A stretch of 64,000 nucleotides of DNA from Candidatus Woesearchaeota archaeon (GCA_016180135.1 JACPBV010000005.1:802-64801), one strand, 5' to 3'. Counted from the first letter of the stretch, positions 10,288-39,397 are shown. The notes: generated from the sequence alone by a model not told the origin. A program made the numbers and translations.

Positions 10288-13200
10288 ATGGCAAAGAATT
10301 CAATCAAAACAGGGGCAGGAAATAAGCGCACAACAGCAATCCCCCAGATTTGGGGGGATGGTAATCTCCAGAGATTAAGCTTTCTAAAAGGAGAAAGATT
10401 AAGCTTTCTGAAGGCAGAGGGATTAAGCCTTCTGAAGGCGCAAAAATTGGCCGCTATTTTCCTCCTTGCGTTGATCATCACATTCCCCATCTCCTCAACC
10501 ATCGCCTACGCAGAGCTTATCAATCCGGCAATAACAGGCTCAAAGAATATCCCGGGTTTCGTAGAAGCAAACGAAACAATCACCCTTCAGGCCAGAGCCC
10601 GGATTGCAGGAGACGATGATATCACTCCATCCCAGGTTCCCCTTTTTGAGCCATCCGGCCCTAACGTATTGTTCATTCAGGGCTGCGCCGAGGAGCCAAA
10701 CAAGGTTTTCAGGTGCACCTCATTCCTCTCCCCATCTGAAGTTTCCCAAAGAACTCTCTCTGAAAAAGTTTTTTCAATTCCGCTGTATCTCCTCCGCAAC
10801 GACGGCACCCAGGAGGATTCTGAAAATGTGCCGGGAGAAGTGGATGAGCTTCCGCCGGTATTCTCCGGAATCAGCATCTCTCCCCTTCAGGCAGGCTTCG
10901 ATGATCTCACGATAAGCTTTGATGTGACCGACTTCGGCAACAGCATCTCCCAAAACTGCGTTGGGCTGAAATCGCTGGTCGTCTCTTCGGGCTCATTTGT
11001 AAAAGAAATAGGCATTCAGAACCCCAGCTGTTCGTTAGCCTCAGGCGTTTCGATTGACTCGGAGGAGATCATTGACGATAAAGAATTTGACGGCAACATC
11101 ACAGTCACCGTAAAAGCAGCGGACAGGTTCGGGCAGGAGTCTTCCGAAAAGAATTTTAATGTCACTCTAGACAGGATGGAGCCGGAGATTAAGGGGGAGC
11201 AAAGCTTCCAGCTTCTTGACGGGGGCTTACACGAAGTTTTTTATTCAGCCGGTTCTCAGATTGTGGCTTCTGCAAGAGTAAATGTCACAGACAGCTTTCT
11301 TAATATTAGCTCGATAAGGGCAGATTTCTCTTCCCTAAATCCGGGGAATGGAATTAAATCTGCGGCTTGCAGCTTTGATGGTGAGAATGCAAGCTGCAGT
11401 TGGGCTGGAATCCTCGTTGACGTTTCCGCTACAGGAGATTTTCCAATAATTATCAATGCGTCGGATACTCTTGGGAATAATGCAACATTTGAAATTATCT
11501 ACCATATTGGACTGGATACAACTAGGCCTGAAGTCGTTTCCTTTTCGGCAGGATACCAAAAAAGTGATAAGGCGACCTCCCCAATAAATTTCTTTGGTCA
11601 ACGAGAAAATAACATAACCATAACCCTCAAGGAGTCCGGCTCCGGCTTCAGCAAAAAGAATATTGCGCTTGACTTGCGAAATATTAACAGCAACCTTGGA
11701 AGATATGACCCCGACTGGTGCAAAAAGACAAGCCCGGAGTTATGGGAATGTACATGGAACAATACTCAAATCCTCTCAAGTAATGAAAGAGTTTCCGATG
11801 GGCAAAAAGAAATTTTAATTCTTCCCGCCGGTTCAGACGATGTTGGCAATGCCCTGATCGGCGACCTTAGCCAAAATATTACTCTGGACTTATCTAAACC
11901 AGTCCTGACGGGAATTAGATACACGCCAAGCGCACCAAAAGCGCCTGAGCCTTTGATCCTAACATTCACCGCATCAGACTCATCACCTGAGCTTTTCGTT
12001 TATGCCAACACTTCACAGATTAGCTCAAGGGAAATTATCGCCGGGGAATGTGATACAAGCAGTAAGTGCAGGATTGAAATAACCGATTTGTTCACCGCCC
12101 ACATCAATGCAACAGTTTCATTGTTTGCCAGGGATATTGCGGGCAACATTGCAGAAGTCAAATATCCTGTAACCCTTTTTGAGCCGGATGCTGAAACCCA
12201 GCCAAACTTTTTCAGGATTGCGAGTGTCGAGCCAGTTCCTCTTTTCGTCGACAGGAAGGTTGCAAGCCAAATCCCATTGAAGCTCTACATTTATACAAGG
12301 CTTGCTAAGGTTGGAGAGCCAACAATTATCCAAAACTCGGTTGACTGCACTGAGTCTGCGAATTATATTAACGGGGCTGCTTACGTTCCCGGAGCTGGCT
12401 CGGGGCAATCTGCTCTTCCTGAGCTGAACAGGGGTTATTACCTGATGAATGAAGGTACCTTAGAGCCCATTATTGCATTGGAGTCATCGCAGGAAATCGC
12501 AAAACTGGAAAAGGATTTTGTTGAATACCGCTGCAAGTTTAACCTTCAGGTGAGGGACAAGACAAAGGTGTACGCAAAGCCTGAGGTTGAAGAGATCAAG
12601 GTGAGATTTACATTACGGGGGAATTCCCTTGGAGACATTCAGGAAAACCTCCAGAAAAAGATGGAGGGAGTCAACAAAGACATCCAGGAAACAGAGAAAG
12701 ATATACAGGATTTGGAAAAGTGGGTGAATATCTTTGGCATCTACTGCAAAATCTCAAGCATGATGGGTGCTTTGAATTCTGCGATACAGGCGATTAAGGC
12801 AGCACTGCAGCCAGTCTTATCAAGCATTTTCATTGCCTGCGCTACCTGTTGTGCAAAATGTGTTGACTTTGGGGCTGCATGCGCATGCGCAACTGCCACA
12901 ATGGCAACCTGGAAAGGCCTTTGCACATCAAGCTCCCTTCTCCACAAGCTCGTTGACGGATTCTTTTGGCCGGTAGGATTGCCGTTCAGGACATTCACAT
13001 CCCCCTGGACTATTGCCGGCTGGTTCCTCAAAGTAGGCTGCATGATCCTGTATTACTGCGCATTGTCCGACTGGGACCAGATGGTCTCATTGGGGGGTGA
13101 GGTAATAAGGGGAGCGCTGCCAAAGAGTGGGTTGGGGAAAATAGAAGAAAGATATAAAGAGTATAAGGATGATACTACAGTGGAACTTGTCAATGGAGAT

Positions 13201-14202
13201 TATGTCCAGTATAACTCTCAAAAGGATAGGATGGTTGTAATGTCGGGACCAAGTTATGAATTAGAAAGACCTGTCACATACAGTCTTGAATCTACTGCAC
13301 TAATGGATGTTAAACTCGTTGGTCAACCCTATATACCAGTCTCAGATGTTTTGTCGGTAAATGATATACCCGGTGGAGTCTCCTCAAGCTCAAATGCAAA
13401 AGATAGGTTCTTAACGAGATTAGCTAATGGAAATCAGCATAAAGAAGATTCATCTCAAACCATTAACCCCTCAGGTAACCCATCCACATCAAATTCCCAA
13501 CAATCTCCGAAAGCACCAGGCCCAGTCAAAAAAGCCCTTGGGATGGGCGGCAGCAAGTCATTCCTGGGATTGAAGAAGCCATCAACTAAAGACACCTTCC
13601 CGATTCAGTCAACCGATCTTGCAAACTCGTGGAACAAAGACTCAACTTCAAGCGATATCCCTTTCCTGTCAGACAAAAATCTTGCTTTTGACCCATATAA
13701 AAGCATCCATTACGCAGAAGACTCAAGGTGTTATCCTGCAATCATCTACAACAAGAAAAAAGAAAAACAGATCAAATGCCTCTACCGCAACTGCATCCAG
13801 AACCATCTGTCTGCAGGCCAGCCGACAACCATATGCGACTTTGCGTATAAGGAGCGGGAATGCCTCTATGTCCAAAGCGCCCAATACCTGAAGAATGGTT
13901 ACAAGGGATTTTTTGACAACCTCTTCAAAGCCTTGCTGAAATATGCAGTTTTCCTCATCATCGGGCATTGGCTTGCGGAAGGAAAGTGCAAGGTGTATTT
14001 CACGCCGGGAACAGATGCGATCTGCGCAGATCCTCCCCCGAGCGCTGGGGCAACCTACTCTGTCCTCTGCGGCACCATAGGCGCTCTTTTTGCCTACATG
14101 GAGATATCCTCAATCATGCAGTCAAAATTTGGTTTTTCCGATGACAAAACCGAGCTGCAAGGGCCGGACTTTTGCTCCGGAAGCGAGGATGGATTAGGAT
14201 AA
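10288..14202 (+). CDS. giant secreted surface protein A (Ig-like repeats, Cys-rich hydrophobic C-terminal region)
   Basis: A 1304-aa ORF with signal peptide 'KLAAIFLLALIITFPISSTIAYA'. It is homologous from the signal peptide onward to the 26665 protein. The true start is uncertain because the first ~55 codons contain a 3x24-nt repeat. Confidence 0.8.
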   Translation: MAKNSIKTGAGNKRTTAIPQIWGDGNLQRLSFLKGERLSFLKAEGLSLLKAQKLAAIFLLALIITFPISSTIAYAELINPAITGSKNIPGFVEANETITLQARARIAGDDDITPSQVPLFEPSGPNVLFIQGCAEEPNKVFRCTSFLSPSEVSQRTLSEKVFSIPLYLLRNDGTQEDSENVPGEVDELPPVFSGISISPLQAGFDDLTISFDVTDFGNSISQNCVGLKSLVVSSGSFVKEIGIQNPSCSLASGVSIDSEEIIDDKEFDGNITVTVKAADRFGQESSEKNFNVTLDRMEPEIKGEQSFQLLDGGLHEVFYSAGSQIVASARVNVTDSFLNISSIRADFSSLNPGNGIKSAACSFDGENASCSWAGILVDVSATGDFPIIINASDTLGNNATFEIIYHIGLDTTRPEVVSFSAGYQKSDKATSPINFFGQRENNITITLKESGSGFSKKNIALDLRNINSNLGRYDPDWCKKTSPELWECTWNNTQILSSNERVSDGQKEILILPAGSDDVGNALIGDLSQNITLDLSKPVLTGIRYTPSAPKAPEPLILTFTASDSSPELFVYANTSQISSREIIAGECDTSSKCRIEITDLFTAHINATVSLFARDIAGNIAEVKYPVTLFEPDAETQPNFFRIASVEPVPLFVDRKVASQIPLKLYIYTRLAKVGEPTIIQNSVDCTESANYINGAAYVPGAGSGQSALPELNRGYYLMNEGTLEPIIALESSQEIAKLEKDFVEYRCKFNLQVRDKTKVYAKPEVEEIKVRFTLRGNSLGDIQENLQKKMEGVNKDIQETEKDIQDLEKWVNIFGIYCKISSMMGALNSAIQAIKAALQPVLSSIFIACATCCAKCVDFGAACACATATMATWKGLCTSSSLLHKLVDGFFWPVGLPFRTFTSPWTIAGWFLKVGCMILYYCALSDWDQMVSLGGEVIRGALPKSGLGKIEERYKEYKDDTTVELVNGDYVQYNSQKDRMVVMSGPSYELERPVTYSLESTALMDVKLVGQPYIPVSDVLSVNDIPGGVSSSSNAKDRFLTRLANGNQHKEDSSQTINPSGNPSTSNSQQSPKAPGPVKKALGMGGSKSFLGLKKPSTKDTFPIQSTDLANSWNKDSTSSDIPFLSDKNLAFDPYKSIHYAEDSRCYPAIIYNKKKEKQIKCLYRNCIQNHLSAGQPTTICDFAYKERECLYVQSAQYLKNGYKGFFDNLFKALLKYAVFLIIGHWLAEGKCKVYFTPGTDAICADPPPSAGATYSVLCGTIGALFAYMEISSIMQSKFGFSDDKTELQGPDFCSGSEDGLG
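10373..10444 (+). repeat. tandem repeat, 3 x 24 nt, in the annotated 5' end of giant gene A
   Basis: 'gattaagctttctaaaaggagaaa', 'gattaagctttctgaaggcagagg' and 'gattaagccttctgaaggcgcaaa' encode RLSFLKGE/RLSFLKAE/GLSLLKAQ. Confidence 0.8.
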
Positions 14203-14302
14203 AAAATAAAATTCCACCCCCAGCAAAGCTGCGGGGTATGAACCAATTTTGAGTAATCAAAAATCGGCAGTACATTCGTTTCAATTGAGATTTGGTAAAG
14301 GG

Positions 14303-15652
14303 ATGCAAAGAAAGGTCAAGATGATTAAAGGAATAAAACCAAAAAGGTTGTCTCCATCTTTAGTGCTCTTGCTCATCATAGCCACAGCTTTTGCAAGGCA
14401 GGACCTTTCGGGGTTTAATCCGGCTGTCGGAGGCTGGTATCAGGTTTCTCCCCAAGAGATTGATTTCTGCAAAAGGTATGGCGGCTCAGAAGATGCTGGG
14501 ATAAATCAGGATTCCCGATCATCAATCCCCATTGCATTATCCCAGATTACGCTCACACTTCAGGCCAAAAGAACCTCAACCTTGGCTAACGGGCAAAGAA
14601 ACGACCTCTATGAGGTAAGCTACTACATTGAGCCGGTGAGCGGTGAAGTGGACTTTGAGGTTCAGCTTCTTGGAGAGTTTACCCCCCCTTTAGATATACC
14701 TAATGGAAGAGGGAGGGCAAAAAGCACAGAGCCGGGGATGGGATTTTATGCTAACTACCATACGGAAGTTTACTCCTCAGCAAAAATTAAATTTGGCAAT
14801 GACTTCATTGAGGTGCCCGTTATCTCTTCAGGAAGGTCTTCTGTTGAACAGGCTCTTGCAGACCAAAAGCTTGCCGCTTCTGTCAGCTCTCAGGAAGGCA
14901 CCTCTCCAAAAGGAATTTCGGTGTCAGGCTTCGACCAATGCATCGAGGATTTCTCATGTGAGTATTATTTCCTGTTCTTGCCGGTAGGGGCGGAATGGCG
15001 TAATCAGGATGTTTTTAATGCACTCGCATACCAGCGGATGCTGTTCTTTAAAGACATATCAAAGTTTAAAAGCAGGAAAGCAGGGGCTGTTTTTGCGCCA
15101 ATTTCGTTCGCATCTGAAAACTGTAACCTTATTAACATCGAGGAAAATTTCCAAAAGCGTGAAATGCACGACAGGATACAGGCGTGCGCTGATAAATATG
15201 CAAGAAGCCTTGGGATAGGATATGAGCGTGCTGTGGGCTTATCTGGCTCTGAAAGTGTTGAAGGAGCCTTTAATGGATATGCCTATTTCACATCGAAAGC
15301 CGCATTTGCCAGGAGGGGCGGTCCCCCCCATGGAGACATAACTTCAGTTGTAGCCCATGAATGGGGGCACACGTATCAGCTATGTGATGAATATAAATAT
15401 CAAACATACTCCAGCCAAGAAAACGAGATAACATGCAAGAACGATTGGCCGACCGAATGCCCGAAGGCTGATTCCTGCTCTGGCCCCCATTGTTATAAAG
15501 AGCTGTGCCGTGGCAATTTCCCGGTCTTTAGGGATTATTCAGGCCCCCCTCTCCCATCAGTCTGCAGGATGGAGGCCAAATATTCAGTAATGGGGGTCGG
15601 AGATGGCGTATGCGGCTTTGATAAAACAGGAGGCTATGAAGCGTTAGGGTGA
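14303..15652 (+). CDS. secreted zinc metalloprotease-like protein (HEXXH)
   Basis: Contains 'VVAHEWGHTYQLCDEY', an N-terminal signal anchor 'LSPSLVLLLIIATAFA' and a Cys-rich C-terminus. The first ATG in frame is at 14303. Confidence 0.7.
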   Translation: MQRKVKMIKGIKPKRLSPSLVLLLIIATAFARQDLSGFNPAVGGWYQVSPQEIDFCKRYGGSEDAGINQDSRSSIPIALSQITLTLQAKRTSTLANGQRNDLYEVSYYIEPVSGEVDFEVQLLGEFTPPLDIPNGRGRAKSTEPGMGFYANYHTEVYSSAKIKFGNDFIEVPVISSGRSSVEQALADQKLAASVSSQEGTSPKGISVSGFDQCIEDFSCEYYFLFLPVGAEWRNQDVFNALAYQRMLFFKDISKFKSRKAGAVFAPISFASENCNLINIEENFQKREMHDRIQACADKYARSLGIGYERAVGLSGSESVEGAFNGYAYFTSKAAFARRGGPPHGDITSVVAHEWGHTYQLCDEYKYQTYSSQENEITCKNDWPTECPKADSCSGPHCYKELCRGNFPVFRDYSGPPLPSVCRMEAKYSVMGVGDGVCGFDKTGGYEALG

Positions 15653-16659
15653 AAATAAAGATGAAATTAAAAATGTTTTTTGGTGTTGGCGCCTTTTTAT
15701 TATTTTTCATTTCTCAAGCGTCAGCTTTGACCATCTGCGAATATGGCCTTGAGATTTCCAAAACGAACGATGTGAATCTGCTTAATATCAACACTTTTCC
15801 CGGAATTGAAGAACCGGATCTTTCGCCCTCCTCAAAATACCAGTTTATCATAAAAAACTCGGAAGATGAGGCAGTTTACCTGAGAGGGATACCCGTATTC
15901 TTCGGTATCCTTGACGCTGATGAGGAGGTGGATGCTATCCCTGTATCAGTGAGGGTCCCTTGCAGCGAAGATGCTGAAAGGCTTGATATAACCTTGGGCG
16001 GAAAGCCAATCTTTTCTTCCGATATTGCCAATCTCCTCTGCAATAAAGACACCGTATGCAATGGGTTTGAAACCTCATTACGATGCTCAGACTGCCCGCA
16101 GTCCTCTTCAGATGGGTGGTGCGACAGGATCAAAGATAACAGATGTGACCCTGATTGCCGGGGAGTTGATATTGACTGCGGCATTGTGGATTCATTTGTT
16201 GCATTAGAAACTTCAGGACCTCTTGCGCTTCAGGGCGAAACCGCTGACAAGCAGAAAAGGCCTGAAGAGCCTTCTGTCGACGGAAGCCTAGGAGAAAAGT
16301 TACCCATCCAATCGCTTCAAAAAACGAGGAGTGAGAAAAACCAGCAGGAATTATTGTTGGATGAGGCACTCATAGGTGAATTATGCAATAAAAATGGCAT
16401 TTGCGATGAAAACGAGGACAGCCAAACTTGCCCTATTGAATGCCCCCCGTCCGATGGGCAGATTGAGCAGCATGATAAAACGGGTGCAGAGGAAATAATA
16501 ACAGGGGTTGCGCCCCAGGCTGAATCTGGAGATAATGCTTCATTTTTCAGGAATCGGAAACCATTGCTGGCGGGACTCATCTTATTGGTAACTGCAATCC
16601 TTGTTATTGGGATTGCCATTCGTTTCATCCGCAGGAGGAGAAGCTATGAGTTTCCATAA
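15649..16659 (+). CDS. Cys-rich secreted protein with a C-terminal membrane anchor
   Basis: It has a signal peptide and two 'C.K.(G/T).C(D/N)...(S/T)..C..(D/E)C' modules reminiscent of Myxococcus-type cysteine-rich repeats. The C-terminal TM is 'LLAGLILLVTAILVIGIAI' followed by RRRR. Confidence 0.6.
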   Translation: MKIKMKLKMFFGVGAFLLFFISQASALTICEYGLEISKTNDVNLLNINTFPGIEEPDLSPSSKYQFIIKNSEDEAVYLRGIPVFFGILDADEEVDAIPVSVRVPCSEDAERLDITLGGKPIFSSDIANLLCNKDTVCNGFETSLRCSDCPQSSSDGWCDRIKDNRCDPDCRGVDIDCGIVDSFVALETSGPLALQGETADKQKRPEEPSVDGSLGEKLPIQSLQKTRSEKNQQELLLDEALIGELCNKNGICDENEDSQTCPIECPPSDGQIEQHDKTGAEEIITGVAPQAESGDNASFFRNRKPLLAGLILLVTAILVIGIAIRFIRRRRSYEFP

Positions 16660-17464
16660 CTTTGGATTGTGGCTTAAGGGCCTTTCTATAGTGAAGAGCT
16701 TTTCAGCTATAGGCAGGGAAAGCCTTCTCTTGATGCTTTTTGAGATAATAAAAGTCTTTGCGGCAGTTGCCATTTTCCTTCTCCTCAGCATGAGCCTCCG
16801 TTCCGGTTTCCATAGCATCGGAATTTCAGATGATCTTATGGAAGATGCTCTCAATAATTTAGGAGTGCCATCCTATCAGGAAAAATTCATTCAGGAAAAA
16901 GTTCCCGAGCCATCCACATTTAAAAACAGGTTTTATTTCCTTATTTTTAATACCGGATTAAAGATAGTTGGCTCGCTTCTCACCCTTATGGCGATAAGCT
17001 CGGCGCTCAACGCATGGGGATGGTGCATTATCCAGAAAAAGAGATGCTCATGGAAATTTATTCTCAGGTATATGGGGCTGATGGCACTTTGGGTATTTTC
17101 CTGGCTGGCTGGTTTTCTTGCGATAACGCTCAACCTGAAGCCAAATCTCATCCCCTGGGCCGCTCCGATAATGCTTTTCCTCTTTATTTTCTTTTCTTTT
17201 ATCCTATTCCCTACATTTGCTATACGGGGAAATATTTTCGCATCCCTGAAACAGGCCTTTGCTCTTGGAATTAGAAAATTCCATATTTTTTTTGGAAATA
17301 TTCTTTGGGCATATATTGTTTATCAGATAGGATTAATCCTGGTAATCTCCCAATCATCCTTCCAGCGCATAATCCTGTATCTTGTTCCATTAATGATTAT
17401 CCTGGGATTTGTTTGGGTAAAATATTTCAGCCTCGAGGTTTTAAAAAATGCGGCAAACAGGTAA
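16646..17464 (+). CDS. polytopic membrane protein, paralog of 38394 and 58865
   Basis: Multiple hydrophobic helices. It shares the block 'IRGNIFASLKQAFALGIRKFH' with 'LRAIREGLAEGIRLHH' in the 38394 protein. It overlaps both neighbours. Confidence 0.6.
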   Translation: MSFHNFGLWLKGLSIVKSFSAIGRESLLLMLFEIIKVFAAVAIFLLLSMSLRSGFHSIGISDDLMEDALNNLGVPSYQEKFIQEKVPEPSTFKNRFYFLIFNTGLKIVGSLLTLMAISSALNAWGWCIIQKKRCSWKFILRYMGLMALWVFSWLAGFLAITLNLKPNLIPWAAPIMLFLFIFFSFILFPTFAIRGNIFASLKQAFALGIRKFHIFFGNILWAYIVYQIGLILVISQSSFQRIILYLVPLMIILGFVWVKYFSLEVLKNAANR

Positions 17465-20453
17465 GAAGGGGCAGGTTTCCCTCTTTATTATTGTAGGATT
17501 GGTCCTCTTGATAGGAGTTTCTATGATCATCCTCTACCAAAATATCAATGAGAAAAAGATTACGCCGGAGGTTGGCAAGGCATCATCATCAGAAGTCCCC
17601 CAATGGGCTGTGCCAGTCAAAGACCTTATGGAAAGCTGCATTGCCTCAATTGCCATTGACGGGCTCAGGAAGATAGGGCAGCATGGGGGATACATCAACC
17701 CAAGAGATTCATTCCTCTCAGGCAGGGCATTTACCTTTGATGATAACCCGACAGAATCGGATTTCTTCCAGCCTTCTGCATTATCCTCCAGCCAGATTGC
17801 TTACTGGTGGTATCTCAAGAGCCCAAATGCATGCATTGACTGCGACCTTTCAACAAATAAGCCAACTCTTGACGAAATAGCGGTCCAGATAAGCAAATAC
17901 GTCAACCAGCGGCTGCACAATTGCACAAAATATATGGAAGATTTTGAGAAACAGGGTTTTGAAGTGGATATTGGAGCCCTGACAACTGCAACATCAATCC
18001 CGGAAAAGGGTGTCGATATTAAGGTGGAAAATCCAATCACTCTAAAAAAAGAAGGAACAACTGCAACAATACCGGAGTTTTCTGTCCACCTTGATCTCAA
18101 TCTTAAAGACATATTTGAGCTCGCCCTGAAGATTATCTTGTTTCAGGCCGATGAGATGGCATTGGAACAGGTGGTGACAACGTTGATCAGCCTTAAAGCT
18201 GGAACTCCAGATTCCTCCCGAATCCCTCCGATGTTTGCCTCTGACAGCAAATCAACCCAGGTGACATGGATCCCGTCAAAGGTTGAAAAGAACTTGAAAG
18301 AAGACATGCTTGCCAGCTATATCCCCTTGATTCAGGTTGACAAGACAAGGGGGGCGAAAAAAATTGCAGTCGCAAACACTCTGGAACAGGGGTTGTATGA
18401 CCTTATCTTTTGGGATGTCCCTATTTTGGGGAATGATGACATCAAAATCAACATGGAGTATAATCCCAAACAAGAAATCTATTTTGATATTACGCCCCAA
18501 AGAGCCGGAATTCTGAAGCCGGAATCTGCCACAAGGGATTCTCCACTGGGAATCACACCTTCAAGAACATTAAACATTTACAATTTCTACTATGACCTCT
18601 CCTTTCCCGTTGTCCTCACCCTTTGGGACAATAATTCTTTGAAGCAGAGCGGAATCCCTGGCTACATTTTCCAGGTTGCGATGGAAGGGAACATCCGGGA
18701 TAACAAAGATCTGCTTCAGTGGCATGAAGGCTCCGGCTCAGTCCAAATTGACAGCAGCAATCTCCAGTTCACCGGAAATATCGGCTCTGCCACTGCCGGA
18801 ACATGTGTCCCTGCTGGAAGCAAATTTCAATGCACCCTTGATGGAAGAGAATATCCAAGAGAGGACCTCTGCACCATCGGATGCAAAATTGACTCTTCAG
18901 TCCAGGGAGATTTTCCCAGCCTGCCATCGCTGGAATGCGATCCGGGCCAGAAAATTTCAGGAGAGCATACGATAAATTTGAAAGATAAAAAGACCAAAGA
19001 GCCAATCGAGGGCGCTTCTATCAGCTATACTTGCGGAAATTCCAGAATTTGTCGCCTTGGCACAACCGACGCTGCTGGCACATTCAAAGGTAAATCTCAA
19101 ATCTGTATAGGTGATGGGATTATTACTGCCGAAAAACCGGATTATATGGCTGCCACCATGGCGGGAATGACAGTAATGCCTGGACAAAGCGTTTCCATCA
19201 ATCTCCAATCGAGAACTTTTGCTGAAAAAGAAGTTGAGGTGGTGTTTATAAACATTTCAAATATGTTTAGGGTAAAAAGGCTGTTAAGCTCTCTCCTCAC
19301 TACAGCGGCATTTTCTATCTACGATGAGGCTGCCTTGAGAGAAAATAACGCCAACAAATTCAACAACGACATCCTTCCTTACATAATGAGAAGCCAGGGG
19401 ATTCTGCCAGCTCTTTTCTTTGAAGCCAATGGCCAGATTGCCAATAAAGTTTGCTATTGTCAGGACATTGCAGGAAAAAAAGATTACAACTGCTTCCAAT
19501 GCCTCCCCGACAATATAAACCCAGCCTTGCTTTCCCAGAAAGACATCCAAAATATTAGGGATTATTTTAAGCTCCCCAATAGTGCAGTATATATTAAGCC
19601 AAGAAGATTTCCAACAGAGCCTATTGTAGAGTATTCTTATTTTCCAGTCCTCTATGGTGCACATTTGAAAATCCTTAGGTTCTTCCATTACAGTGATATG
19701 GATCCGAGGAAAGTCGCCGAATCACTTGGGGAGGTTTATAGTGCATTGCACGAGGTAAACAGCTATATTAAGCAAGTTATGGCAGATCCGAATCTAATTG
19801 GGGAAATCATTGAAAAAAAGTCAAATGGACAAAAAAGGGGATTTACAGGAGATATTCTCCCATCCCAGGAGATTATTGGCCAGATTTCAGCATTAGACCG
19901 GAAAATTCAGCATGAGTTCAGCAATCTTCAGGCAAGATCAAATACAGAAAAAAACCAGGCCTCCAATATTCAGGATTACAGGGCAGCTGCAAAACCTTTT
20001 TCGGGGCCGTTTGAAGGAGTGATCCAGCTCAACAGAATTAAAGAAAGTCCCTCCGAAGGAAATCTTCCACTTCCCTCAGCAATTGTGGGCGATAGTGAAA
20101 ACACCAGGCTTTCCCTTATGCCAGGAAAATATGAAGCCACTATCAATGTTCAGCGGAAAAACCCGGCAGTAATCAGCAGGAATAATCTCCTTGATACGAT
20201 TCGGCTTCCCAGCGGAAGCAATTTCATCGCGGGCCAGGATGTTGAGTATAATCTCCTCGGTGGTGCGCAAATTAGCCAAAGCAATGGGTACTGGAACATT
20301 GGAGAAGATGAACTTGATGGAAGCAGTAAAATAAGATTTTATGCATTTATCACTGACATCCCCGAAAATGCTGAAGATTTCTCGGAAATGGGCAATATTG
20401 GAGATTACTCAAAAAGATATAGATTATATATTGAGCCGGAATTTCTACCATAA
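17448..20453 (+). CDS. large protein with a class III (prepilin-like) signal peptide, module A
   Basis: The N-terminus is 'MRQTGKKGQVSLFIIVGLVLLIGV'. It aligns with the 24539 and 39398 proteins at 'YWWYLKS' and 'FYYDLSFPVVLTLWD'. Confidence 0.8.
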   Translation: MRQTGKKGQVSLFIIVGLVLLIGVSMIILYQNINEKKITPEVGKASSSEVPQWAVPVKDLMESCIASIAIDGLRKIGQHGGYINPRDSFLSGRAFTFDDNPTESDFFQPSALSSSQIAYWWYLKSPNACIDCDLSTNKPTLDEIAVQISKYVNQRLHNCTKYMEDFEKQGFEVDIGALTTATSIPEKGVDIKVENPITLKKEGTTATIPEFSVHLDLNLKDIFELALKIILFQADEMALEQVVTTLISLKAGTPDSSRIPPMFASDSKSTQVTWIPSKVEKNLKEDMLASYIPLIQVDKTRGAKKIAVANTLEQGLYDLIFWDVPILGNDDIKINMEYNPKQEIYFDITPQRAGILKPESATRDSPLGITPSRTLNIYNFYYDLSFPVVLTLWDNNSLKQSGIPGYIFQVAMEGNIRDNKDLLQWHEGSGSVQIDSSNLQFTGNIGSATAGTCVPAGSKFQCTLDGREYPREDLCTIGCKIDSSVQGDFPSLPSLECDPGQKISGEHTINLKDKKTKEPIEGASISYTCGNSRICRLGTTDAAGTFKGKSQICIGDGIITAEKPDYMAATMAGMTVMPGQSVSINLQSRTFAEKEVEVVFINISNMFRVKRLLSSLLTTAAFSIYDEAALRENNANKFNNDILPYIMRSQGILPALFFEANGQIANKVCYCQDIAGKKDYNCFQCLPDNINPALLSQKDIQNIRDYFKLPNSAVYIKPRRFPTEPIVEYSYFPVLYGAHLKILRFFHYSDMDPRKVAESLGEVYSALHEVNSYIKQVMADPNLIGEIIEKKSNGQKRGFTGDILPSQEIIGQISALDRKIQHEFSNLQARSNTEKNQASNIQDYRAAAKPFSGPFEGVIQLNRIKESPSEGNLPLPSAIVGDSENTRLSLMPGKYEATINVQRKNPAVISRNNLLDTIRLPSGSNFIAGQDVEYNLLGGAQISQSNGYWNIGEDELDGSSKIRFYAFITDIPENAEDFSEMGNIGDYSKRYRLYIEPEFLP

Positions 20454-24538: not shown

Positions 24539-26668
24539 ATGAACAGCCACATTTTGTTTAATGGAAAAAGGGGCCAGCTTACTTTATTCATCGTCATCGG
24601 AGCTGTTCTTCTTATTGGCGGGGCGATTTATTTTTCAGCCCGTGAGCAGGCTGCAAGGCAGGAACTGCAGCCATTTACCCAGTCGCTCATCCAGGAAGTC
24701 CCGTCAGAATTCGCCCCCGTCCAGGCTTTTGTGGACAGATGCCTCGGCCAGACTGCAAGGGAAGGCCTTCAGATCCTGGGCGAGCATGCAGGATTCATCA
24801 GCCTTTTGGAGAACAACATCAACGCACGGGATGATGCGACAAATGCAGACGCAGTCCCTCTGGCCAGAGGCTCTGAATATGCGATACCTTATTGGTGGTA
24901 TCTTAAGTCCGGCAATGGCTGCGCAGCGAATTGCGAGTTTTCTATGGTTCCGGGAAATAAGCTGTTCCTGAGGAAAACGCCGGGAAAAGCCTCTATTGAA
25001 GGCCAGCTGGAAGAATATATCAACGCAAACATCAATGACTGCCTTGCGGATTTCCGGGAGATAAAAGCCCAGGGCTTCAATGTCTCGCCAAAAAGATCAC
25101 CAAGGTCAGCTGTCACTATTTATCTTGGGCAGATGGGCATCAGGCTGGACTTCCCGCTTGAGGTAACCAAAGAGGCAGCAAGAGAGCTCTCAGATTTCTT
25201 GATATCCTTGCCTCTGGATTTCGCAAAAGTATACAACACCGCCTCAAGGCTTGCTGCGATGCAGGCAGATATGAAATTCCTCGAAAAGCACACATTGAAC
25301 CTGATCACTGCTTTTTCCGGGCTTGACAGGAACAAATTGCCGCCATTTGCTGACGTAAGGCCTTCCTTCGGGCCAAAAGTCACCTGGTCAGAATCCCAGT
25401 CCATGGAGCGCTTTAAGAATAATGTTCTTCCCCCCAACATCCAGCTGCTGAAAGTCTTTGGCGCTAAAAATTACGAGCCCTACCCTTTTTTCACAGACCC
25501 TCTGCTGGATTCGCTCTACAACCGGGGCATGCTTATCCCCGGAACAGCAAACTACAGCAGCCTTGAGATAACGTTTGAATACAACCCTTTCTGGAACATC
25601 TACTTTGATATTGACTGCAACGGAGACAGCTGCGAGCCGGAAACATTCCAGGAGAACTTCATCACAGGGATTATCCTCCAGCAGTATAACTTTGTCTATG
25701 ACATCTCTTTTCCCGTCAAGGTCACCATCAGGGATACCGAAGCATTCAACGGCGAAGGGTATCTTTTTACATTCTTCCTCGAAGCAAACATACGGCAGAA
25801 CGATCCGATGCCGTCCGCCTATTCAAGGATTGAGGCGCTGCAGCCGTCGGGAAATTCGCAGTTCTGCGATTCAGACAAAAAAACCTCAGGAGAGATAACG
25901 ATTGAAGCAAAGGATTCTGTCAGCGAACAGCCGATACCTGAAGTTCAGGTCATAATCTCAACAGGGACAGAAAACTGCCTGATAGGAACGACAGATGAAG
26001 AAGGAAAGCTTGTATCCCAATTCCCTGTCGCTTTCGGCCCCGTCGTGAGCTTCACAAAACCGGGCTTTATCGGCTACTCCCAGAGAATTGAGCCGAGAGT
26101 TGACAAAAAGCAGTTTCTCAGCATTGCGCTCAACCCCAAGGTCGCCAAAAGCTTTGAGATCCAGAAACGCCTGAGGACAAGGCAGCCCGGGCAGAAAGAC
26201 TGGGAGATCGGCAGCATCGCAAACCTGTCCAGATACGAAGAGGCAACAATCATTTTGACAAGACTAAGCGGCTTGCAGGAGCAGGATTACACAACCGGAA
26301 GCGCGTATGTTGTGAACCTGACCGAACTTCCAACGATAGATATTGCTCCCGGGAAGTATGAAGTCCGCATCATGCTCCTTGACAGCAGGAACCTCTCAAT
26401 TCCCCAGAAAAAGATCAAAGTCAAAGATGAAAGCTTCACCCTGCCGGAGATCGGCCTTGGCGAGGGCTTCAAGACAGGCGGCGCATTGTATAATTTCACC
26501 TTCACCAAATATAATCTGCAGAAGGATAAGCTTGTCTTTTACGTATTGAATCCGGACATCCTGGCTATCCCTGAGCCGCAGAGGACTTTAGATGACCTTG
26601 ATGAGCTGACAAATGTTGACCAGGCTTCAGCAAGATACTGGGAAAAGCTGACCCAGGGGATACGATGA
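24539..26668 (+). CDS. large protein with a class III (prepilin-like) signal peptide, module B
   Basis: The N-terminus contains 'GKRGQLTLFIVIGAVLLIGG'. It shares 'YWWYLKS' and 'FVYDISFPVKVTIRD' with its paralogs. An ATGA overlap links it to the next gene. Confidence 0.8.
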   Translation: MNSHILFNGKRGQLTLFIVIGAVLLIGGAIYFSAREQAARQELQPFTQSLIQEVPSEFAPVQAFVDRCLGQTAREGLQILGEHAGFISLLENNINARDDATNADAVPLARGSEYAIPYWWYLKSGNGCAANCEFSMVPGNKLFLRKTPGKASIEGQLEEYINANINDCLADFREIKAQGFNVSPKRSPRSAVTIYLGQMGIRLDFPLEVTKEAARELSDFLISLPLDFAKVYNTASRLAAMQADMKFLEKHTLNLITAFSGLDRNKLPPFADVRPSFGPKVTWSESQSMERFKNNVLPPNIQLLKVFGAKNYEPYPFFTDPLLDSLYNRGMLIPGTANYSSLEITFEYNPFWNIYFDIDCNGDSCEPETFQENFITGIILQQYNFVYDISFPVKVTIRDTEAFNGEGYLFTFFLEANIRQNDPMPSAYSRIEALQPSGNSQFCDSDKKTSGEITIEAKDSVSEQPIPEVQVIISTGTENCLIGTTDEEGKLVSQFPVAFGPVVSFTKPGFIGYSQRIEPRVDKKQFLSIALNPKVAKSFEIQKRLRTRQPGQKDWEIGSIANLSRYEEATIILTRLSGLQEQDYTTGSAYVVNLTELPTIDIAPGKYEVRIMLLDSRNLSIPQKKIKVKDESFTLPEIGLGEGFKTGGALYNFTFTKYNLQKDKLVFYVLNPDILAIPEPQRTLDDLDELTNVDQASARYWEKLTQGIR

Positions 26669-29600
26669 CAGCAAAAAACAAAACAGCACAGGCGCTCTTC
26701 CTCATCACCTTAGTATTGACCCTGCCGTTCTACTCATCCCTGGCGTATGCCTCCCTGAGCAGCCCTTCCGTCAAAGGGGCAGACGGCTTTCCCGGATTTG
26801 TCCGGGGAAATGAGCAGTTTCAGATAAATGTGACAGCCTTCATTGCGCCCAATGAGGTGATAACCCCCAACCAGCTGTCAACAGTTGACGTAAACGGCCC
26901 GCCATTTGACAGCTGCCTCGACATCGGCTCCGGGAATTTCCAGTGCATCAAAGCTTTTGATGCTTCAACCCTGTCGCAAAACCCTTTCACTTTAAACATA
27001 AAGCTCTTCAGAGACGGCGGGTCGCAGGAATCAAACTTATTGGTAAACGGCATTATTGACCAGCTTCCTCCGATAATAAATACATTTGCGATAACCCCCC
27101 AAAAAACATCGTCAGGAAATATCTCGCTGCAGTGGTCTGTCACCGACGTTTCCCACTCCCCAGCTGCCCTCACCCAATGCACCGGCATCAAGAAGGTCGA
27201 ATTTTCATCATCTGAACGGGGAGTGTTCCGCTCAATACCGCTCAACAGCTTCCCGGTCTGCGGGCGGAGCAGGACAGAGAGCATTCCTGTTAGCCTCATC
27301 ACCGGAAGTGATGGGAACATCTCAGTTACCCTGAGGGTTTTTGACGGGGTAAATCTGCAGTCAGCCCAGGAGAGCACCTTCGTGTTTGACACAACTCCCC
27401 CATCCATCGTCGTTGATTCGCTGAAGATTGTTGACAATGCAGGAAATGACCTCAGCTTCCTGACAAACATTTCAGCCCTCTCCTCGATAAAGTTCAAGAT
27501 AAACGCCAATGACCTCAATGTGAGTTCCGTCTCTGCAGACATCTCTTCCCTCAGCACCGATCCCCCTGCTGATTTCAGGAAAAAGCCGGTTGGCTGCATC
27601 AGGTCTGCCTTCGATGAATTTAACTGCTCGATTGCAGGCATACCGGTGAGCATCAGCCAGTCCCTTAATGCCCAGATAATTGTCAACGCATCTGATGCTT
27701 TAGGGAATAAGCAGACAGCGCAGTTGGCAAAGCAGCTGAATTTTGACAATCTTGGCCCGGTTGTTGCCTCCATAACGACAGATTTCCGGAATGCGGCAGA
27801 TGGAAGGAGCTTCGCAGGAAAAAAGACAAATTTCTTTGTCACCCTGGCTGAAGGGGGCGTGGGCGTTGATAAAAATGATGTCAGGCTCGATTTAAGCTCT
27901 GTCAACAGCGCGCTTGCATCTGCATCGCCCGATGAATGTGTTTCTTCCGGAAATGAGATAACCTGCGTCTTTGCAAATATCACCCCAACAGCTTCTGACG
28001 GCGTCAGGCCGATCAGGGTTCTTTCCTCTTCCCGGGACAGGCTTGGGAATCCTGTATCTGGAGCTTTGGAAGAGAATATAACCATAGACACCACCCTGCC
28101 AAAGATTGAGAAGTTTTCCGCCAAAGCGCTGGCAACAGGAACCTCAACGACCTTCCCGCCGTTCCTGAAGACAGGAGATGCGTTTGCCTTTGAGGTGAAT
28201 GTGACGGAGAAAAATGATTTTACGATAAAAGCTGATTTTTCAAACATTGTGACGACAATGCAGGAGCCCGTTGCAGGACAGTGCTCAGTGGCCGCTGTGA
28301 TTTCAGGCCTTGCAGGGCTTGGTGGAAATGTTTCCGTCTGCGCATGGAACACAAACCCTATAGATGTTCAGGGCCCGATAAATTCAAACATCCTCATCAA
28401 TGTGACTGACGCTGCCGGAAACAGCAAGATTGGCTTTGCCAACTTTACCGTCCTCCAGTTTGATGATGCCGAGGTTGTCAACCACTGGACGTCAAGAGTG
28501 GAATGCTCTCCGTCGTTGGTGGACAGGCAGATAACGCCGCTGATCAACGCCAAAGTCTACTGCCAGGTAAGGCTGCAGCCCCTAAGCAATGACCAGGAAG
28601 TGCTGGACATAAAGCTGAATCCCTCCCAGTGCGAGAGCGTTGCCAAAGATTCTTTAGATTTTGTAGATCCAGAAGGGTTTGAGCTGACGAACGGCAACAG
28701 GGGAGCGACTGAGCCTTTCGTCTCTTTCCGGCTTGCAAAAGGCGAGATGGAGATTGACCGATTGGAGTTCAGATGCCCGCTGGAGATCATAACAAGAGCA
28801 GGCCAAACAATCAACAAGAACCCCGAAGTAGAGGAAGTAACGCTGCAGGCAGGGTTCTACAACAATCCTTTAGGCCAATTTGGCGATGAAGTGAAGAAAG
28901 AGATAAAGGATGCCAAGGATATTGCGAATAATATCGGGTTTAAGATTGTGGGGTATTTGAAAGAAATCGTAAAATATGCCACGATGATTTGTAATTTGAT
29001 AGCTACAGTAGAAAAATTATGGTGGGCAATCCATAGTTTTACCAAAGGGATGACCACTGCTCACCTTGCCGCTGTTGGTCCTGCAGAAGTTGCCTTGGGC
29101 CAATATGCTTACCAAGGATGTGTTCAAGATCAATTTATTCAGAAATATAATGAAAATCTCTATACGGGATTTAGTTCATTCTGCAAATATGTAAACTGCC
29201 AATACAGCCCGGCTTCCCCTCAGGATCCTTCCAAAGGGGGCCAGATTACCAGTGAAAAGACAAAAATGGGCAAGATTCATGACTTTTTCAATTCCTGGCA
29301 GACCAAAGGAAATAACTTCTTTGGCAAAATAAGCCCTGCGACAGAAACAACGACAACCATCTCCCTTTTAGGCACTAATCTTATAGGCAGAAAAGGCACC
29401 GATAGTAAATTCCGTGACTGCAAAACAATTGAGGAATGCTCAGGTAAGCAGCCAAGCCAGTATATGAATGCGAGAGACAATCTTGGAGTTGCCCTTATGA
29501 CAGGCTGCATCCCGGGAATTATTAACGGGTTGGATAATATTCGCCAATTGTTCTGCCTCAAAGCTGACTGCCTCCAGGATAATGCAAGAAACAATGTTCC

Positions 29601-29949
29601 AATAAAGGAGTGCAATGACCAGTTCTGGTATGCAACATGCAAATATATCATTGGCGAGGTATTTTCATTTTTCCCGCCGTTCGCGTTTTTTTTCAGATAT
29701 GTAGGATACATCACAGAGGCATTGAGCGACCCCATAACGGCAGTATTCACCTTGTTAAACATCTTTTTCCAGCCATGCCAGGTTGAGTGCAAGCCAGATA
29801 AAGGTGGTTCTGTTGGATGGGTGCAATGGAGTTGGTTTTGCGGGAGCCTTCAGGTAGCAACCTACATCGGTGAGATTATCAACGACGTCCAGGGAATTAT
29901 TGATACTTTCAAAGATGAAAAGATAGATTACTGCGAGAGGATTGATTGA
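26665..29949 (+). CDS. giant secreted surface protein B (Ig-like repeats, Cys-rich C-terminal region)
   Basis: A 1094-aa ORF with signal peptide 'ALFLITLVLTLPFYSSLAYA'. It aligns with the 10288 protein. Confidence 0.8.
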   Translation: MTAKNKTAQALFLITLVLTLPFYSSLAYASLSSPSVKGADGFPGFVRGNEQFQINVTAFIAPNEVITPNQLSTVDVNGPPFDSCLDIGSGNFQCIKAFDASTLSQNPFTLNIKLFRDGGSQESNLLVNGIIDQLPPIINTFAITPQKTSSGNISLQWSVTDVSHSPAALTQCTGIKKVEFSSSERGVFRSIPLNSFPVCGRSRTESIPVSLITGSDGNISVTLRVFDGVNLQSAQESTFVFDTTPPSIVVDSLKIVDNAGNDLSFLTNISALSSIKFKINANDLNVSSVSADISSLSTDPPADFRKKPVGCIRSAFDEFNCSIAGIPVSISQSLNAQIIVNASDALGNKQTAQLAKQLNFDNLGPVVASITTDFRNAADGRSFAGKKTNFFVTLAEGGVGVDKNDVRLDLSSVNSALASASPDECVSSGNEITCVFANITPTASDGVRPIRVLSSSRDRLGNPVSGALEENITIDTTLPKIEKFSAKALATGTSTTFPPFLKTGDAFAFEVNVTEKNDFTIKADFSNIVTTMQEPVAGQCSVAAVISGLAGLGGNVSVCAWNTNPIDVQGPINSNILINVTDAAGNSKIGFANFTVLQFDDAEVVNHWTSRVECSPSLVDRQITPLINAKVYCQVRLQPLSNDQEVLDIKLNPSQCESVAKDSLDFVDPEGFELTNGNRGATEPFVSFRLAKGEMEIDRLEFRCPLEIITRAGQTINKNPEVEEVTLQAGFYNNPLGQFGDEVKKEIKDAKDIANNIGFKIVGYLKEIVKYATMICNLIATVEKLWWAIHSFTKGMTTAHLAAVGPAEVALGQYAYQGCVQDQFIQKYNENLYTGFSSFCKYVNCQYSPASPQDPSKGGQITSEKTKMGKIHDFFNSWQTKGNNFFGKISPATETTTTISLLGTNLIGRKGTDSKFRDCKTIEECSGKQPSQYMNARDNLGVALMTGCIPGIINGLDNIRQLFCLKADCLQDNARNNVPIKECNDQFWYATCKYIIGEVFSFFPPFAFFFRYVGYITEALSDPITAVFTLLNIFFQPCQVECKPDKGGSVGWVQWSWFCGSLQVATYIGEIINDVQGIIDTFKDEKIDYCERID

Positions 29950-30988: not shown

Positions 30989-31037
30989 CATGCCCCGCCG
31001 CACAAAAGGCCACAGGCATACCCCAGGCATGCAGAAC

Positions 31038-31220: not shown

Positions 31221-32539
31221 ATAAAAAGACATTCAAAGAAACAGAACTCCTGGAATTAAAAAAATCAACCTCTGAGTTAAAGGAAGCTATAATCTCCATG
31301 GCCTCTATCTTAAACAAGCATCAGAAAGGAGAAATCTACTTTGGCATAAAGAATAACGGCGAAATTGCAGGCCAGGATATCTCAGGAAAAACAATAAGAG
31401 AAGTGTCTAAATCTGTTTCGGATAATATTGAGCCTAAAATTTATCCTAAAATCAAAGATGTCTTAATTGATGGCAGGAAATGCGTGCATGTTGAATTTAA
31501 TGGCAATGATATCCCTTACTATGCATTCGGGAGGGCCTACATGAGAGTGGGTGATGAGGACAAGAAAGTAAGCGCCAAAGAATTGGAGAAAATGATTGTA
31601 GAAAAAAATAAAGATGAGTTAGCATGGGACAAAGCAGTATGCAAAGGCGCAAAAACAAGTGATATAAGCCTGCAAAAACTGAAAGTATTCCTCAAACAGG
31701 CAGCCTTGAAATTTGATTCCGCAGAAAATTCGCTTAAGAAGCTTAACCTGATAAAGGGCAGCAGCCTTATCAATTCGGCGCTGATACTATTCGCAAAAAA
31801 TCCTGAGAAATTTTTCCCAAATGCAAAATTGCGATGTGCCGTTTTTGGCACAGACGATGCCTCTTTTATCATTGATATGCAGGAATTTGAAGGTGATTTG
31901 TTCTATCTGATTGAAAAGGCGCAGGAGTACATACTTAAAAATATACACATAGGTATGAGGATTGATGGATTGTACAGGGTTGATGTTCCGGAGATAGACA
32001 AAGAAGCATTTAGGGAGGCAATAGTTAACGCTTTTTGCCATAGGGATTACCACAACTATGACTCCGTAAATATTGCAATATTCAGGGGCAGGATGGAGAT
32101 AAGGAGCCCGGGGTTATTGTATGGGGGGCTTACCATAGAAAAGATCATATCAGGAGCCGTTTCTGAGAGGCGGAATGAAATAATCGCAGAAATGTTTCAT
32201 AAAGTCCATTTTGTCGAAAAGTGGGGAAGGGGGATTAATTTGATTCTTTCCAAGGAGCCGGATGCTGATTTTAAGGAATCAGGCAGGCATTTCGTTGTAG
32301 TTTTCAAGAGGAAAGAAAAAAGCTACGAAGTGAAAAGTTCGGAGAAGAGTTCGGAGAAAAGTTCGGTGAAGATTTTAGAGTTGATAAGGGAAAATCAGAG
32401 TATAACCGTCCGGGAAATTGCAAAAGAATTGAACATAACTGCAAGGGCAGTGGAAAAGAGCATCTCAAAATTAAAGCTAAAAGGCTTGCTTAAAAGAATC
32501 GGCCCGGACAAAGGGGGGCGCTGGGAGATCATCAAATGA
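31217..32539 (+). CDS. COG2865-type protein (AlbA_2/Schlafen-like DNA-binding domain + HATPase_c_4-like domain + winged HTH)
   Basis: Contains 'ETELLELKKS', 'GEIYFGIKNNGEIAG', 'NAFCHRDY', 'EIRSPGLL' and 'VEKWGRGINLI'. The C-terminal HTH is 'SITVREIAKELNITARAVEKSISKLK'. Confidence 0.8.
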   Translation: MNKKTFKETELLELKKSTSELKEAIISMASILNKHQKGEIYFGIKNNGEIAGQDISGKTIREVSKSVSDNIEPKIYPKIKDVLIDGRKCVHVEFNGNDIPYYAFGRAYMRVGDEDKKVSAKELEKMIVEKNKDELAWDKAVCKGAKTSDISLQKLKVFLKQAALKFDSAENSLKKLNLIKGSSLINSALILFAKNPEKFFPNAKLRCAVFGTDDASFIIDMQEFEGDLFYLIEKAQEYILKNIHIGMRIDGLYRVDVPEIDKEAFREAIVNAFCHRDYHNYDSVNIAIFRGRMEIRSPGLLYGGLTIEKIISGAVSERRNEIIAEMFHKVHFVEKWGRGINLILSKEPDADFKESGRHFVVVFKRKEKSYEVKSSEKSSEKSSVKILELIRENQSITVREIAKELNITARAVEKSISKLKLKGLLKRIGPDKGGRWEIIK

Positions 32540-37469: not shown

Positions 37470-37470
37470 G

Positions 37471-38393: not shown

Positions 38394-39212
38394 ATGAAAC
38401 CGATCAAAACAATAAAAAGAAAAAGCTCCTGGGGTGAAGCTCTCGGAGAATATTTCCGGGATCACGGAAAAGCCGCTTTCAAAGCAGCAAAAGCCTCGAT
38501 GAACACCCGCACCCTGATGGCGGCAGGATACGCCGCAATATTATTCTCAGCCACGCTCCTTGCATTCTTTTTTGCGAAGCTTGCCCTGGTTCCAAAACTG
38601 GAAGCGCTTGACTCGATCAGCCTTGACCGCATCCAGGAAAAGGCAGAGGGTGAATTGGCGGAGATTGCCGGAATAGCGAAAGGATTCATCGCAGCCCTTA
38701 TAGCAGTCGTTATAGCAGCATCAGCGCTCTGGGCTCTGCTCTTTGGCCTAATCGAGGGAAGCCTCATCAGAGGATTTACCGGCTCGGATGTTCCCCTGAA
38801 AAGATATGCCCTCCTTGGGCTTGTTTGGGCCCCCGCCTGGCTGGCCATATTCTTCCTCCTCATTTTTGGGGGCAGGTCGGAAACACTCCTCACAGGATTG
38901 ATCATGCTGGCGCTGGCCTTCATCCACTTCAGCACGACAGTCTTTTGCCGCTTTTCGGCAACGAACAGGTTAAGGGCAATAAGGGAAGGCCTTGCCGAAG
39001 GAATAAGGCTTCACCATTATCTCCTGCCCTACATTTCCCTATACTTTATATACCGCCTCGGCAAATATCTCTTTGATTGGGCATTAATCCTGAGCAAAGC
39101 TCAGCCAGGGATTGTCCTGCTTGGGACCGGAATGGTTTTGATGCTGCTGTTCATCGGATTTGCGCAGGCATTCCAGATCAACACTCTCCTGCAGGCCAAA
39201 CAAGCCAGATAG
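38394..39212 (+). CDS. polytopic membrane protein, paralog of 16646 and 58865
   Basis: It has five or more hydrophobic helices and the shared 'LRAIREGLAEGIRLHHYL' block. It lies directly upstream of the prepilin-like gene of module C. Confidence 0.6.
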   Translation: MKPIKTIKRKSSWGEALGEYFRDHGKAAFKAAKASMNTRTLMAAGYAAILFSATLLAFFFAKLALVPKLEALDSISLDRIQEKAEGELAEIAGIAKGFIAALIAVVIAASALWALLFGLIEGSLIRGFTGSDVPLKRYALLGLVWAPAWLAIFFLLIFGGRSETLLTGLIMLALAFIHFSTTVFCRFSATNRLRAIREGLAEGIRLHHYLLPYISLYFIYRLGKYLFDWALILSKAQPGIVLLGTGMVLMLLFIGFAQAFQINTLLQAKQAR

Positions 39213-39345: not shown

Positions 39346-39397
39346 CAAGCAGGACAGATAGGTTATTGGCAGGAAACATTGCCCGGAAACATCTACC

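Follow-up and report, generated by a model that had tools for sequence, protein, structure and literature searches.

What stands at the C-terminal end of the giant secreted proteins of an uncultured archaeon, and what would it do there? The question is raised by a stretch of 64,000 nucleotides from Candidatus Woesearchaeota archaeon (GCA_016180135.1, JACPBV010000005.1:802-64801; hereafter the window, numbered from its first letter), in which four genes, A to D, encode giant surface proteins. The source genome is a 1.5-Mb assembly of 44 contigs, 88% complete, and the named relatives of the window proteins are Woesearchaeota and Nanoarchaeota, i.e. DPANN archaea. The Woesearchaeota and related lineages are ultra-small archaea, both abundant and uncultured, and are thought to spend their lives attached to other cells. 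A preliminary description made from the sequence held that the four giants share an unusual C-terminal region, at once rich in cysteine (Cys) and strongly hydrophobic, which might be a membrane-inserting or a disulfide-locked module; its span in A, 12688-14202, corresponds to residues 801-1304. We found such a module in A and B, and the evidence supports the disulfide-locked part of the proposal.

Proteins A and B are paralogues along their entire length, 845 residues being matched at E 2e-64 and the tail showing a further, weak match; eight close relatives align through to the C-terminal end. The shared module occupies about 380-545 residues in A and B and is composed of two conserved blocks and a variable linker, the latter (residues 944-1129 in A) being far shorter in most relatives. 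Block 2 has the core pattern 'DPYKSIHYA..C.C.PA.IYN.KK..QI.C....C......G.....C........C', followed by a tail Cys, and the A-family profile of this block matches A with E 2.8e-65 and B with E 9.1e-47. Upstream of it, block 1 is recognised by a long helix with Cys and by the motifs 'FIWPxG' and 'KYxCMIYSC', scoring 246 bits in A and 116 bits in B. An exhaustive search with the hidden Markov model (HMM) of block 2 returned 1190 cluster representatives at a threshold of E 1e-3, of which 559 still passed at E 1e-10; almost all of these matches lie at the far C-terminal end of proteins of 1000-1500 amino acids (aa). Of the 151 relatives retrieved, 130 also have a match to the block 1 HMM. In a phylum-level sample of 301 genomes, the module occurred in 165, with one or two copies in each, and every one of the 165 belongs to the same order as this genome. 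Searches with A, B, C, D and the partner proteins described below found nothing above threshold in Pfam, NCBIfam and PDB sequences, and no description of the module was found in the published literature searched. Judged from these sequence comparisons, the tails of A and B are one true homologous domain. The A/B module is an undescribed domain family, absent from Pfam, NCBIfam and PDB.

The six strings by which the preliminary description had illustrated the region were all located in the proteins it named. Those from A, B and C fall on one aligned core motif, whereas the D string 'YFESYICSL' is spurious. Through the alignment and HMM comparison, the claim of a C-terminal region common to all four giants could be kept for A and B, which align as a common domain, but C shares only a remotely similar core of about 70 residues in mid-protein and D matches no profile.

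The Cys-rich character was measured against the genome's open reading frames (ORFs) of 200 aa or more (median 1.0% Cys, 95th percentile 3.4%). Block 1 of A (7.1%), block 2 of A (5.2%), the tail of B (3.9%) and residues 590-1710 of C (3.7%) all lie above the 95th percentile, so the claim holds for these three proteins but not for D, which has only 3 Cys in 1087 residues (1.4% in the tail).

Disulfide pairing was deduced from the covariation of Cys presence and absence in an alignment of 95 modules, numbered after A. Four pairs covary (phi 0.92-1.0). Both Cys820 and Cys918 are missing in 9 sequences, both Cys924 and Cys1148 in 6, and both Cys of columns 927 and 1146, where A has Ser at each position, in 37; in none of these three pairs is one Cys missing alone. 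For Cys879 and Cys1246, both are missing in 23 sequences and one alone in 3. Three of the four pairs bridge block 1 and block 2. Independently of AlphaFold, this points to a packing of the two blocks against each other and to folding of the module in an oxidising, extracytoplasmic place. Another seven Cys are invariant in block 2 (1164, 1169, 1183, 1192, 1234, 1261 and 1296). The 'disulfide-locked' reading is thus supported by the four covarying pairs, three of them cross-block, and the module is best described as a putative disulfide-stapled extracytoplasmic domain. The tip Cys cluster of A, 'IACATCCAKCVDFGAACAC', is a lineage-specific matter: 65 of the 95 relatives have no Cys there, and no other part of the module is as poorly conserved as the hairpin tip in which it lies, whose length varies between 13 and 125 residues.

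The parity of the Cys count is unusual. It is odd in the module of 84 of 95 members, even in the N-terminal immunoglobulin-like (Ig-like) stalk of 74 of 81, and even in 95 of 97 members of the C family. With an odd number in the module, one invariant Cys appears to have no partner within the protein and is predicted to be unpaired.

AlphaFold2 was run on residues 760-1304 of A with a 34-row alignment. Both blocks were predicted as entirely helical with a local confidence score (pLDDT) >90, and the global score (pTM) was 0.60. In block 1 the helices span residues 784-857 (74 residues), then after a hairpin turn 861-893, 906-922 and 929-943; in block 2 they span 1149-1176, 1181-1196, 1208-1238 and 1253-1277. 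The stretch 'SSIFIACATCCAKCVDFGAACAC' forms the tip of the first helical hairpin. The predicted structure is therefore a confident all-alpha bundle of two blocks. Foldseek found no neighbour of the A model in PDB (best E 5.2) or among the BFVD viral models (best E 0.9), and the comparisons of the A and C models with PDB and of A with BFVD gave long-helix noise only (E >0.4).

Protein C is linked to this family through its core. In BLASTP, C gave no significant match to A or B in the tails, and the quoted C segment is central, at residues 1294-1353 of 2185. The best hhalign match of the A profile lands exactly on this segment; thin profiles gave E 0.1-0.8, and richer profiles of 126 and 46 sequences gave E 4.3e-4 over 71 columns. 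The A-family HMM matches dozens of C relatives, always at model positions 3-62. Conversely, of 106 domain hits that the HMM of the C motif made in A-family sequences, 93 are in the expected register, with a best E of 6.7e-6. Against the full profiles of block 1 and block 2, C showed no match as a whole, only the core of about 70 residues. Homology of the C core to the block 2 core is likely but unproven. The C family itself is large and well conserved, with >156 relatives that are 40-72% identical over residues 1150-1560 and about 33 invariant Cys between residues 592 and 1703. In the low-confidence structural model of C, a 64-residue helix and others behind it precede a beta-rich insert; next, a 28-residue helix starts directly behind the first core Cys, as in A. 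Its long helix is probably the counterpart of the long helix of A. Protein C would then retain the core helix-turn-helix with matching Cys spacing and carry a large beta-rich, Cys-rich insert in place of the linker.

To which proteins the module might bind is suggested by the gene neighbourhood. It was compared at two loci fetched through homologues (L010 and L012) and at 16 further loci from different genera. In all 16 and in both L010 and L012, the giant adjoins a protein of 600-1000 aa with a class III (prepilin-like) leader, called PARTNER here, and the locus usually includes a polytopic membrane protein of about 265 aa (MEMB) as well. Two gene orders were found: GIANT-SMALL-MEMB-PARTNER (A type) and PARTNER-GIANT with overlapping stop and start codons (B type). 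SMALL is a secreted protein of about 170 aa whose mature part has exactly one invariant Cys, within 'WE.E.C.KWGG'; all 7 genomes with an A-type locus have it, and none of the 9 whose only locus is of the B type does. A prepilin peptidase, a type IV filament ATPase and a platform protein are encoded on other contigs of the genome.

The reading that we favour, with a confidence a little above even, is that the end module of A and B is an extracellular, stapled helical bundle that docks the giant to the products of the neighbouring genes, perhaps covalently. The last 380-545 residues would form an all-alpha bundle outside the cell, the two blocks being folded back on each other across the variable linker. 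After removal of the signal peptide, the giant would be fully secreted with no membrane anchor of its own, because the signal is of the AxA type and no other anchor was seen. The bundle would then be the base that docks the Ig-like stalk on the pilin-like helix of PARTNER, on MEMB and, in A-type loci, on SMALL. More speculatively, the unpaired invariant Cys of the module may bond with the single invariant Cys of SMALL and make the link covalent; in this genome SMALL carries a metalloprotease-like extension.

Several points weigh against this reading or against the wider family on which it draws. Docking to the partners is read from synteny, which is an indirect basis. The B-type giants have an odd Cys count as well, yet their genomes lack SMALL. 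About 16% of the relatives (e.g. P0010, P0014 and P0009) have a hairpin tip of transmembrane grade. On the side of protein C, the hhalign probability of the A-C core is only 34%, a weak statistic, and a low mean pLDDT (61) makes the C model uncertain. We also considered SMALL as the cause of the unpaired Cys throughout the family and rejected it, as the B-type giants are odd without SMALL. A disulfide between SMALL and the free Cys is therefore an attractive but speculative proposal for A-type systems, and it cannot hold for B-type ones.

Self-anchoring, insertion into a host membrane and homo-oligomerisation fit the family-wide data less well than docking. The module could mainly be an oligomerisation domain, either the coiled-coil base of a stalk or a contact in an S-layer-like lattice, with the unpaired Cys linking giant chains. 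The very long helices would suit such a role, as would the odd Cys count of A- and B-type giants alike regardless of SMALL, and the tetrabrachion type of archaeal stalk is a precedent. However, the helices are predicted to fold into an intramolecular bundle with intrachain disulfides, and the strict linkage to partner genes argues for hetero-complexes; we regard oligomerisation as an unlikely main function.

Alternatively, the module might be a self-anchor, in which the hairpins at residues 838-880 and 1208-1277 of A span or dip into the membrane of the archaeon itself and hold the giant on the cell. Nothing else would anchor the giant once its signal peptide is cleaved, the Kyte-Doolittle peaks in these helices of A reach 1.5-1.7, and the tips of some relatives are of transmembrane grade (-1.8 kcal/mol in P0010 and -1.5 kcal/mol in P0014). 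We tested hydrophobicity by the Hessa insertion scale with a cut-off of 2 kcal/mol and by Kyte-Doolittle with a threshold of 1.6. The N-terminal signal peptide was the sole segment of A under 2 kcal/mol, A has no more than the Kyte-Doolittle peaks given above, and the tail of B had no segment over 1.6. For the most hydrophobic 19-mer of each of 95 relatives, the median was +3.9 kcal/mol in block 1 and +4.7 kcal/mol in block 2, and only 16% and 5% of the relatives, respectively, fell below 1.5 kcal/mol; the median for their signal peptides was +0.9 kcal/mol. The tips are polar in B and in many relatives, their poor conservation in sequence and length speaks against an anchoring role, and the stapling Cys pairs sit inside the very helices supposed to be embedded. 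In addition, the C family has extracellular domains at both ends (FN3 at the N-terminus and, in relatives, murein hydrolases at the C-terminus), so a lone hydrophobic helix cannot cross the membrane once. We consider self-anchoring improbable.

The same measurements show that 'strongly hydrophobic' and 'membrane-like' were overstated, and they go against the membrane-inserting half of the earlier proposal: most relatives stay below transmembrane grade, and the stapling disulfides place a folded bundle outside the cytoplasm. Its other statement, that the tail is no standard anchor and is not PGF-CTERM-like, agrees with our results, as no Pfam, NCBIfam, PDB or fold match was found and the tail is polar. 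The last 30 residues are polar in both giants, A ending in '...ELQGPDFCSGSEDGLG' and B in '...DEKIDYCERID'. Neither has a terminal hydrophobic helix or a Pfam or NCBIfam match that would indicate a PGF-CTERM or archaeosortase signal, and no conserved terminal segment of transmembrane grade, as expected of a simple C-terminal anchor, was seen in A or the 95 relatives.

Still less probable is a module directed at a host, i.e. a membrane inserter, pore-former or fusogen whose long coiled helix drives the hydrophobic hairpin tip into the membrane of the partner cell. The helix of about 74 residues, its tip (hydrophobic and with many small residues in A and in part of the relatives), the episymbiotic life known for DPANN archaea and the lineage-specific distribution of the family are all in line with it. 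Against it, neither the sequence nor the length nor the hydrophobicity of the tip is conserved; the module lies at the protein end expected to face the producer's own partner proteins; none of the PDB and BFVD matches (all E >0.9) linked the fold to ClyA, Hbl, YaxAB or viral fusion proteins; and several disulfide staples would hamper a large refolding. A related version, to which we give very little weight, would make the module the business end of a DPANN cell-contact apparatus, with the long helix and its variable, hydrophobic, Cys-bearing hairpin tip pushed into or against the host membrane and gated by a reversible disulfide between the unpaired Cys and SMALL or a host surface thiol. If that were true, it would be the first candidate molecular device for the membrane contacts and cytoplasmic bridges between DPANN archaea and their hosts. 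Finally, the idea that no shared module exists and that the similarity merely reflects the biased composition of Cys-rich, low-complexity tails, to which the spurious D string and the low-complexity, non-conserved tip cluster of A might lend some colour, has practically no chance, and for A and B it is already refuted by the profile matches and the Cys covariation (B at E 9e-47, 559 representatives at E 1e-10 or better, invariant Cys columns with covarying pairs), besides the confident fold prediction.

In the C family, the last 200-480 residues (about 1570-2185 in C, window 46800-48650) are the most variable part of the proteins. SLT, VanY or amidase_2 domains stand at the extreme C-terminus of C relatives; in P0094, P0110, P0118 and P0135 these tail murein hydrolases are SLT plus VanY, VanY alone or amidase_2. 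The C protein of the window had no recognisable tail domain and no murein hydrolase in Pfam. The variability of the tail suggests a swappable enzymatic or binding 'warhead', which in some cases may act against bacterial cell walls. We also considered the helix at residues 822-840 of C as a transmembrane segment and rejected this, as its median in the family is +4.4 kcal/mol and the C-terminal ends of relatives bear extracellular enzymes.

Protein D gave no match to the A/B profiles and nothing significant in BLASTP against C; judged by these searches, it is unrelated to the A/B family. It lies at window 29942-38392 together with two DUF1016/YhcG nuclease genes, an AlbA_2/HATPase_c_4 gene and small ORFs, between the cassettes of B and C. 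Since cassettes like those of B and C directly adjoin each other in other genomes (L020, L022 and L023), this 8.4-kb block with D looks like an insertion.

The features of the window that bear on these proteins are listed in the following table.

Table. Genes, module parts and neighbouring cassettes of the giant proteins in the window (residues in aa; assignments of modules, helices and leaders are predictions)
Feature	Position	Strand	Description
Gene A	10288..14202	+	1304 aa; Sec-type signal peptide (AYA/E), Ig-like stalk, C-terminal module
Module of A, block 1	12565..13116	+	aa 760-943; C820, C879, C918, C924
Block 1 hairpin tip in A	12823..12897	+	aa 846-870, six Cys; contains 'SSIFIACATCCAKCVDFGAACAC'; lineage-specific, variable
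Module of A, linker	13117..13674	+	aa 944-1129; Cys-free, low-complexity, variable, predicted disordered
Module of A, block 2	13675..14202	+	aa 1130-1304; tail end 'G.DFC'; seven invariant Cys
SMALL-family secreted protein	14249..15652	+	N-terminal domain with single invariant Cys74; fused Cys-rich extension with HEWGH metalloprotease motif
MEMB, cassette A	16646..17464	+	polytopic membrane protein
PARTNER of A	17448..20453	+	1001 aa; class III (prepilin-like) leader
PARTNER of B	24539..26668	+	709 aa; prepilin-like leader; stop overlaps start of B
Gene B	26665-29949	+	1094 aa
Module of B	28807..29949	+	aa 715-1094; 15 Cys; divergent member of the A/B family
Gene D	32536..35799	+	1087 aa; outside the A/B family; between cassettes B and C
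Cassette C, MEMB and partner	38394..41500	+	MEMB 38394-39212; prepilin-like partner 39398-41500
Gene C	42093-48650	+	2185 aa
Long helix of C	44475..44666	+	aa 795-858; transmembrane-like stretch 822-840, invariant C830
Core of C	45939..46160	+	aa 1283-1356; 'IDPIKQHIAAFQC..IYN...C...G...C........C'; probable remote homologue of block 2 core; mid-protein

At the 5' end of the annotated ORF of A there is a 24-nucleotide tandem repeat (10372-10439; 2.8 copies, 86% matches) that encodes 'LSFLKGERLSFLKAEGLSLLKA'. Homologues of A begin about 45 codons downstream of the annotated start, and an in-frame TTG is located at 10447. The start of A is uncertain: the true start may be later, or the protein may bear a repeat-containing leader.

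The HEWGH extension of SMALL in the window weakly matches M6 peptidase models (Pfam E 0.05, NCBIfam E 3.6e-4), and at locus L014 a member of the SMALL family bears a fused extension of 650 aa that contains 36 Cys. SMALL looks like an adaptor bearing variable cargo. At another locus (L017 4509-7532, minus strand, genome G048), MEMB and the prepilin-like partner form a single ORF of 1007 aa, for which an ORF-calling artefact is possible; it may be a natural fusion. If so, MEMB and the partner act together, and the 'prepilin' helix can be an internal membrane helix.

Giant secreted Cys-rich proteins are not limited to the window. Many more were found on contigs C24, C40, C18, C44 and C42, e.g. 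one of 2021 aa with 152 Cys and one of 2033 aa with 131 Cys, and a fourth homologue of the prepilin-like partner (C18:20521-22071) adjoins a 1595-aa protein with 100 Cys. Within the window, a third copy of the MEMB family is divergent from ORFs of 394 aa and 1021 aa (58865-59665 and 54167-58494, minus strand), the latter ORF having a weak match to the DUF5122 beta-propeller. These genes may form a fourth, different cassette.

What is new here is a large domain family with a confident fold prediction and a disulfide map drawn from evolution alone, with an unusual, family-wide Cys predicted to be unpaired and with strictly conserved neighbour genes. It offers a compact target of about 350 residues and concrete predictions on Cys pairing and partner binding that are testable without culturing the organism. 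A wrong lead, the tails as membrane anchors or inserters, is removed, and the real family (A, B and remotely C) is set apart from the look-alike D.

Among known proteins, lineage-specific giant extracellular SLT-domain proteins of up to 3000 aa were described in Woesearchaeota and Pacearchaeota (Castelle et al. 2021, PMC8204110). Some C-family relatives fit this description, fam00969 being compared by description only; unlike them, the C protein of the window lacks a murein hydrolase, and that paper contains neither the Cys-stapled helical module nor the A/B family. The module is also missing from a 2026 survey of archaeal type IV filaments, according to which such systems are few in DPANN.

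The alpha pore-forming toxins (ClyA, Hbl/Nhe, YaxAB/XaxAB) resemble the module in having a long helical bundle with a more hydrophobic hairpin at one end, but no Foldseek match links them, the tip here is not conserved, and the bundle is locked by several disulfides. Twin CX9C and CX3C (CHCH-type) proteins are antiparallel helical hairpins held by disulfides, with the Cys within the helices. The module is likewise predicted to have antiparallel, disulfide-held helices with embedded Cys, whereas its spacings are C-x4-C and C-x8-C and unequal, its size is about 350 residues, it is extracellular and archaeal, and there is no sequence match. Tetrabrachion of Staphylothermus marinus is an S-layer stalk with a bound protease, formed by a parallel four-stranded coiled coil with a C-terminal transmembrane anchor. 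Like the giants here, it is a very large archaeal surface protein whose distal part is rich in beta structure and whose proximal part is long and helical, and its stalk-associated protease has a parallel in SMALL, fused here to a HEWGH metalloprotease-like domain; the A/B module differs by its predicted intramolecular bundle and by having no transmembrane tail.

A functional resemblance, drawn from gene context only, exists to the PilY1/minor-pilin tip complexes of bacterial type IV pili (GspK-I-J in type II secretion); no Pfam match and no sequence or fold similarity to PilY1 was found. PilY1 docks by a C-terminal beta-propeller, whereas the A/B module is all-alpha and disulfide-stapled; the partners here are of 600-1000 aa instead of small pilins, and the locus has no pilus motor. 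In both systems a large secreted adhesin-like protein is encoded beside pilin-helix proteins and is expected to dock on them with its C-terminal domain. The genome studied here also has a prepilin peptidase, an ATPase and a platform protein, at unlinked positions.

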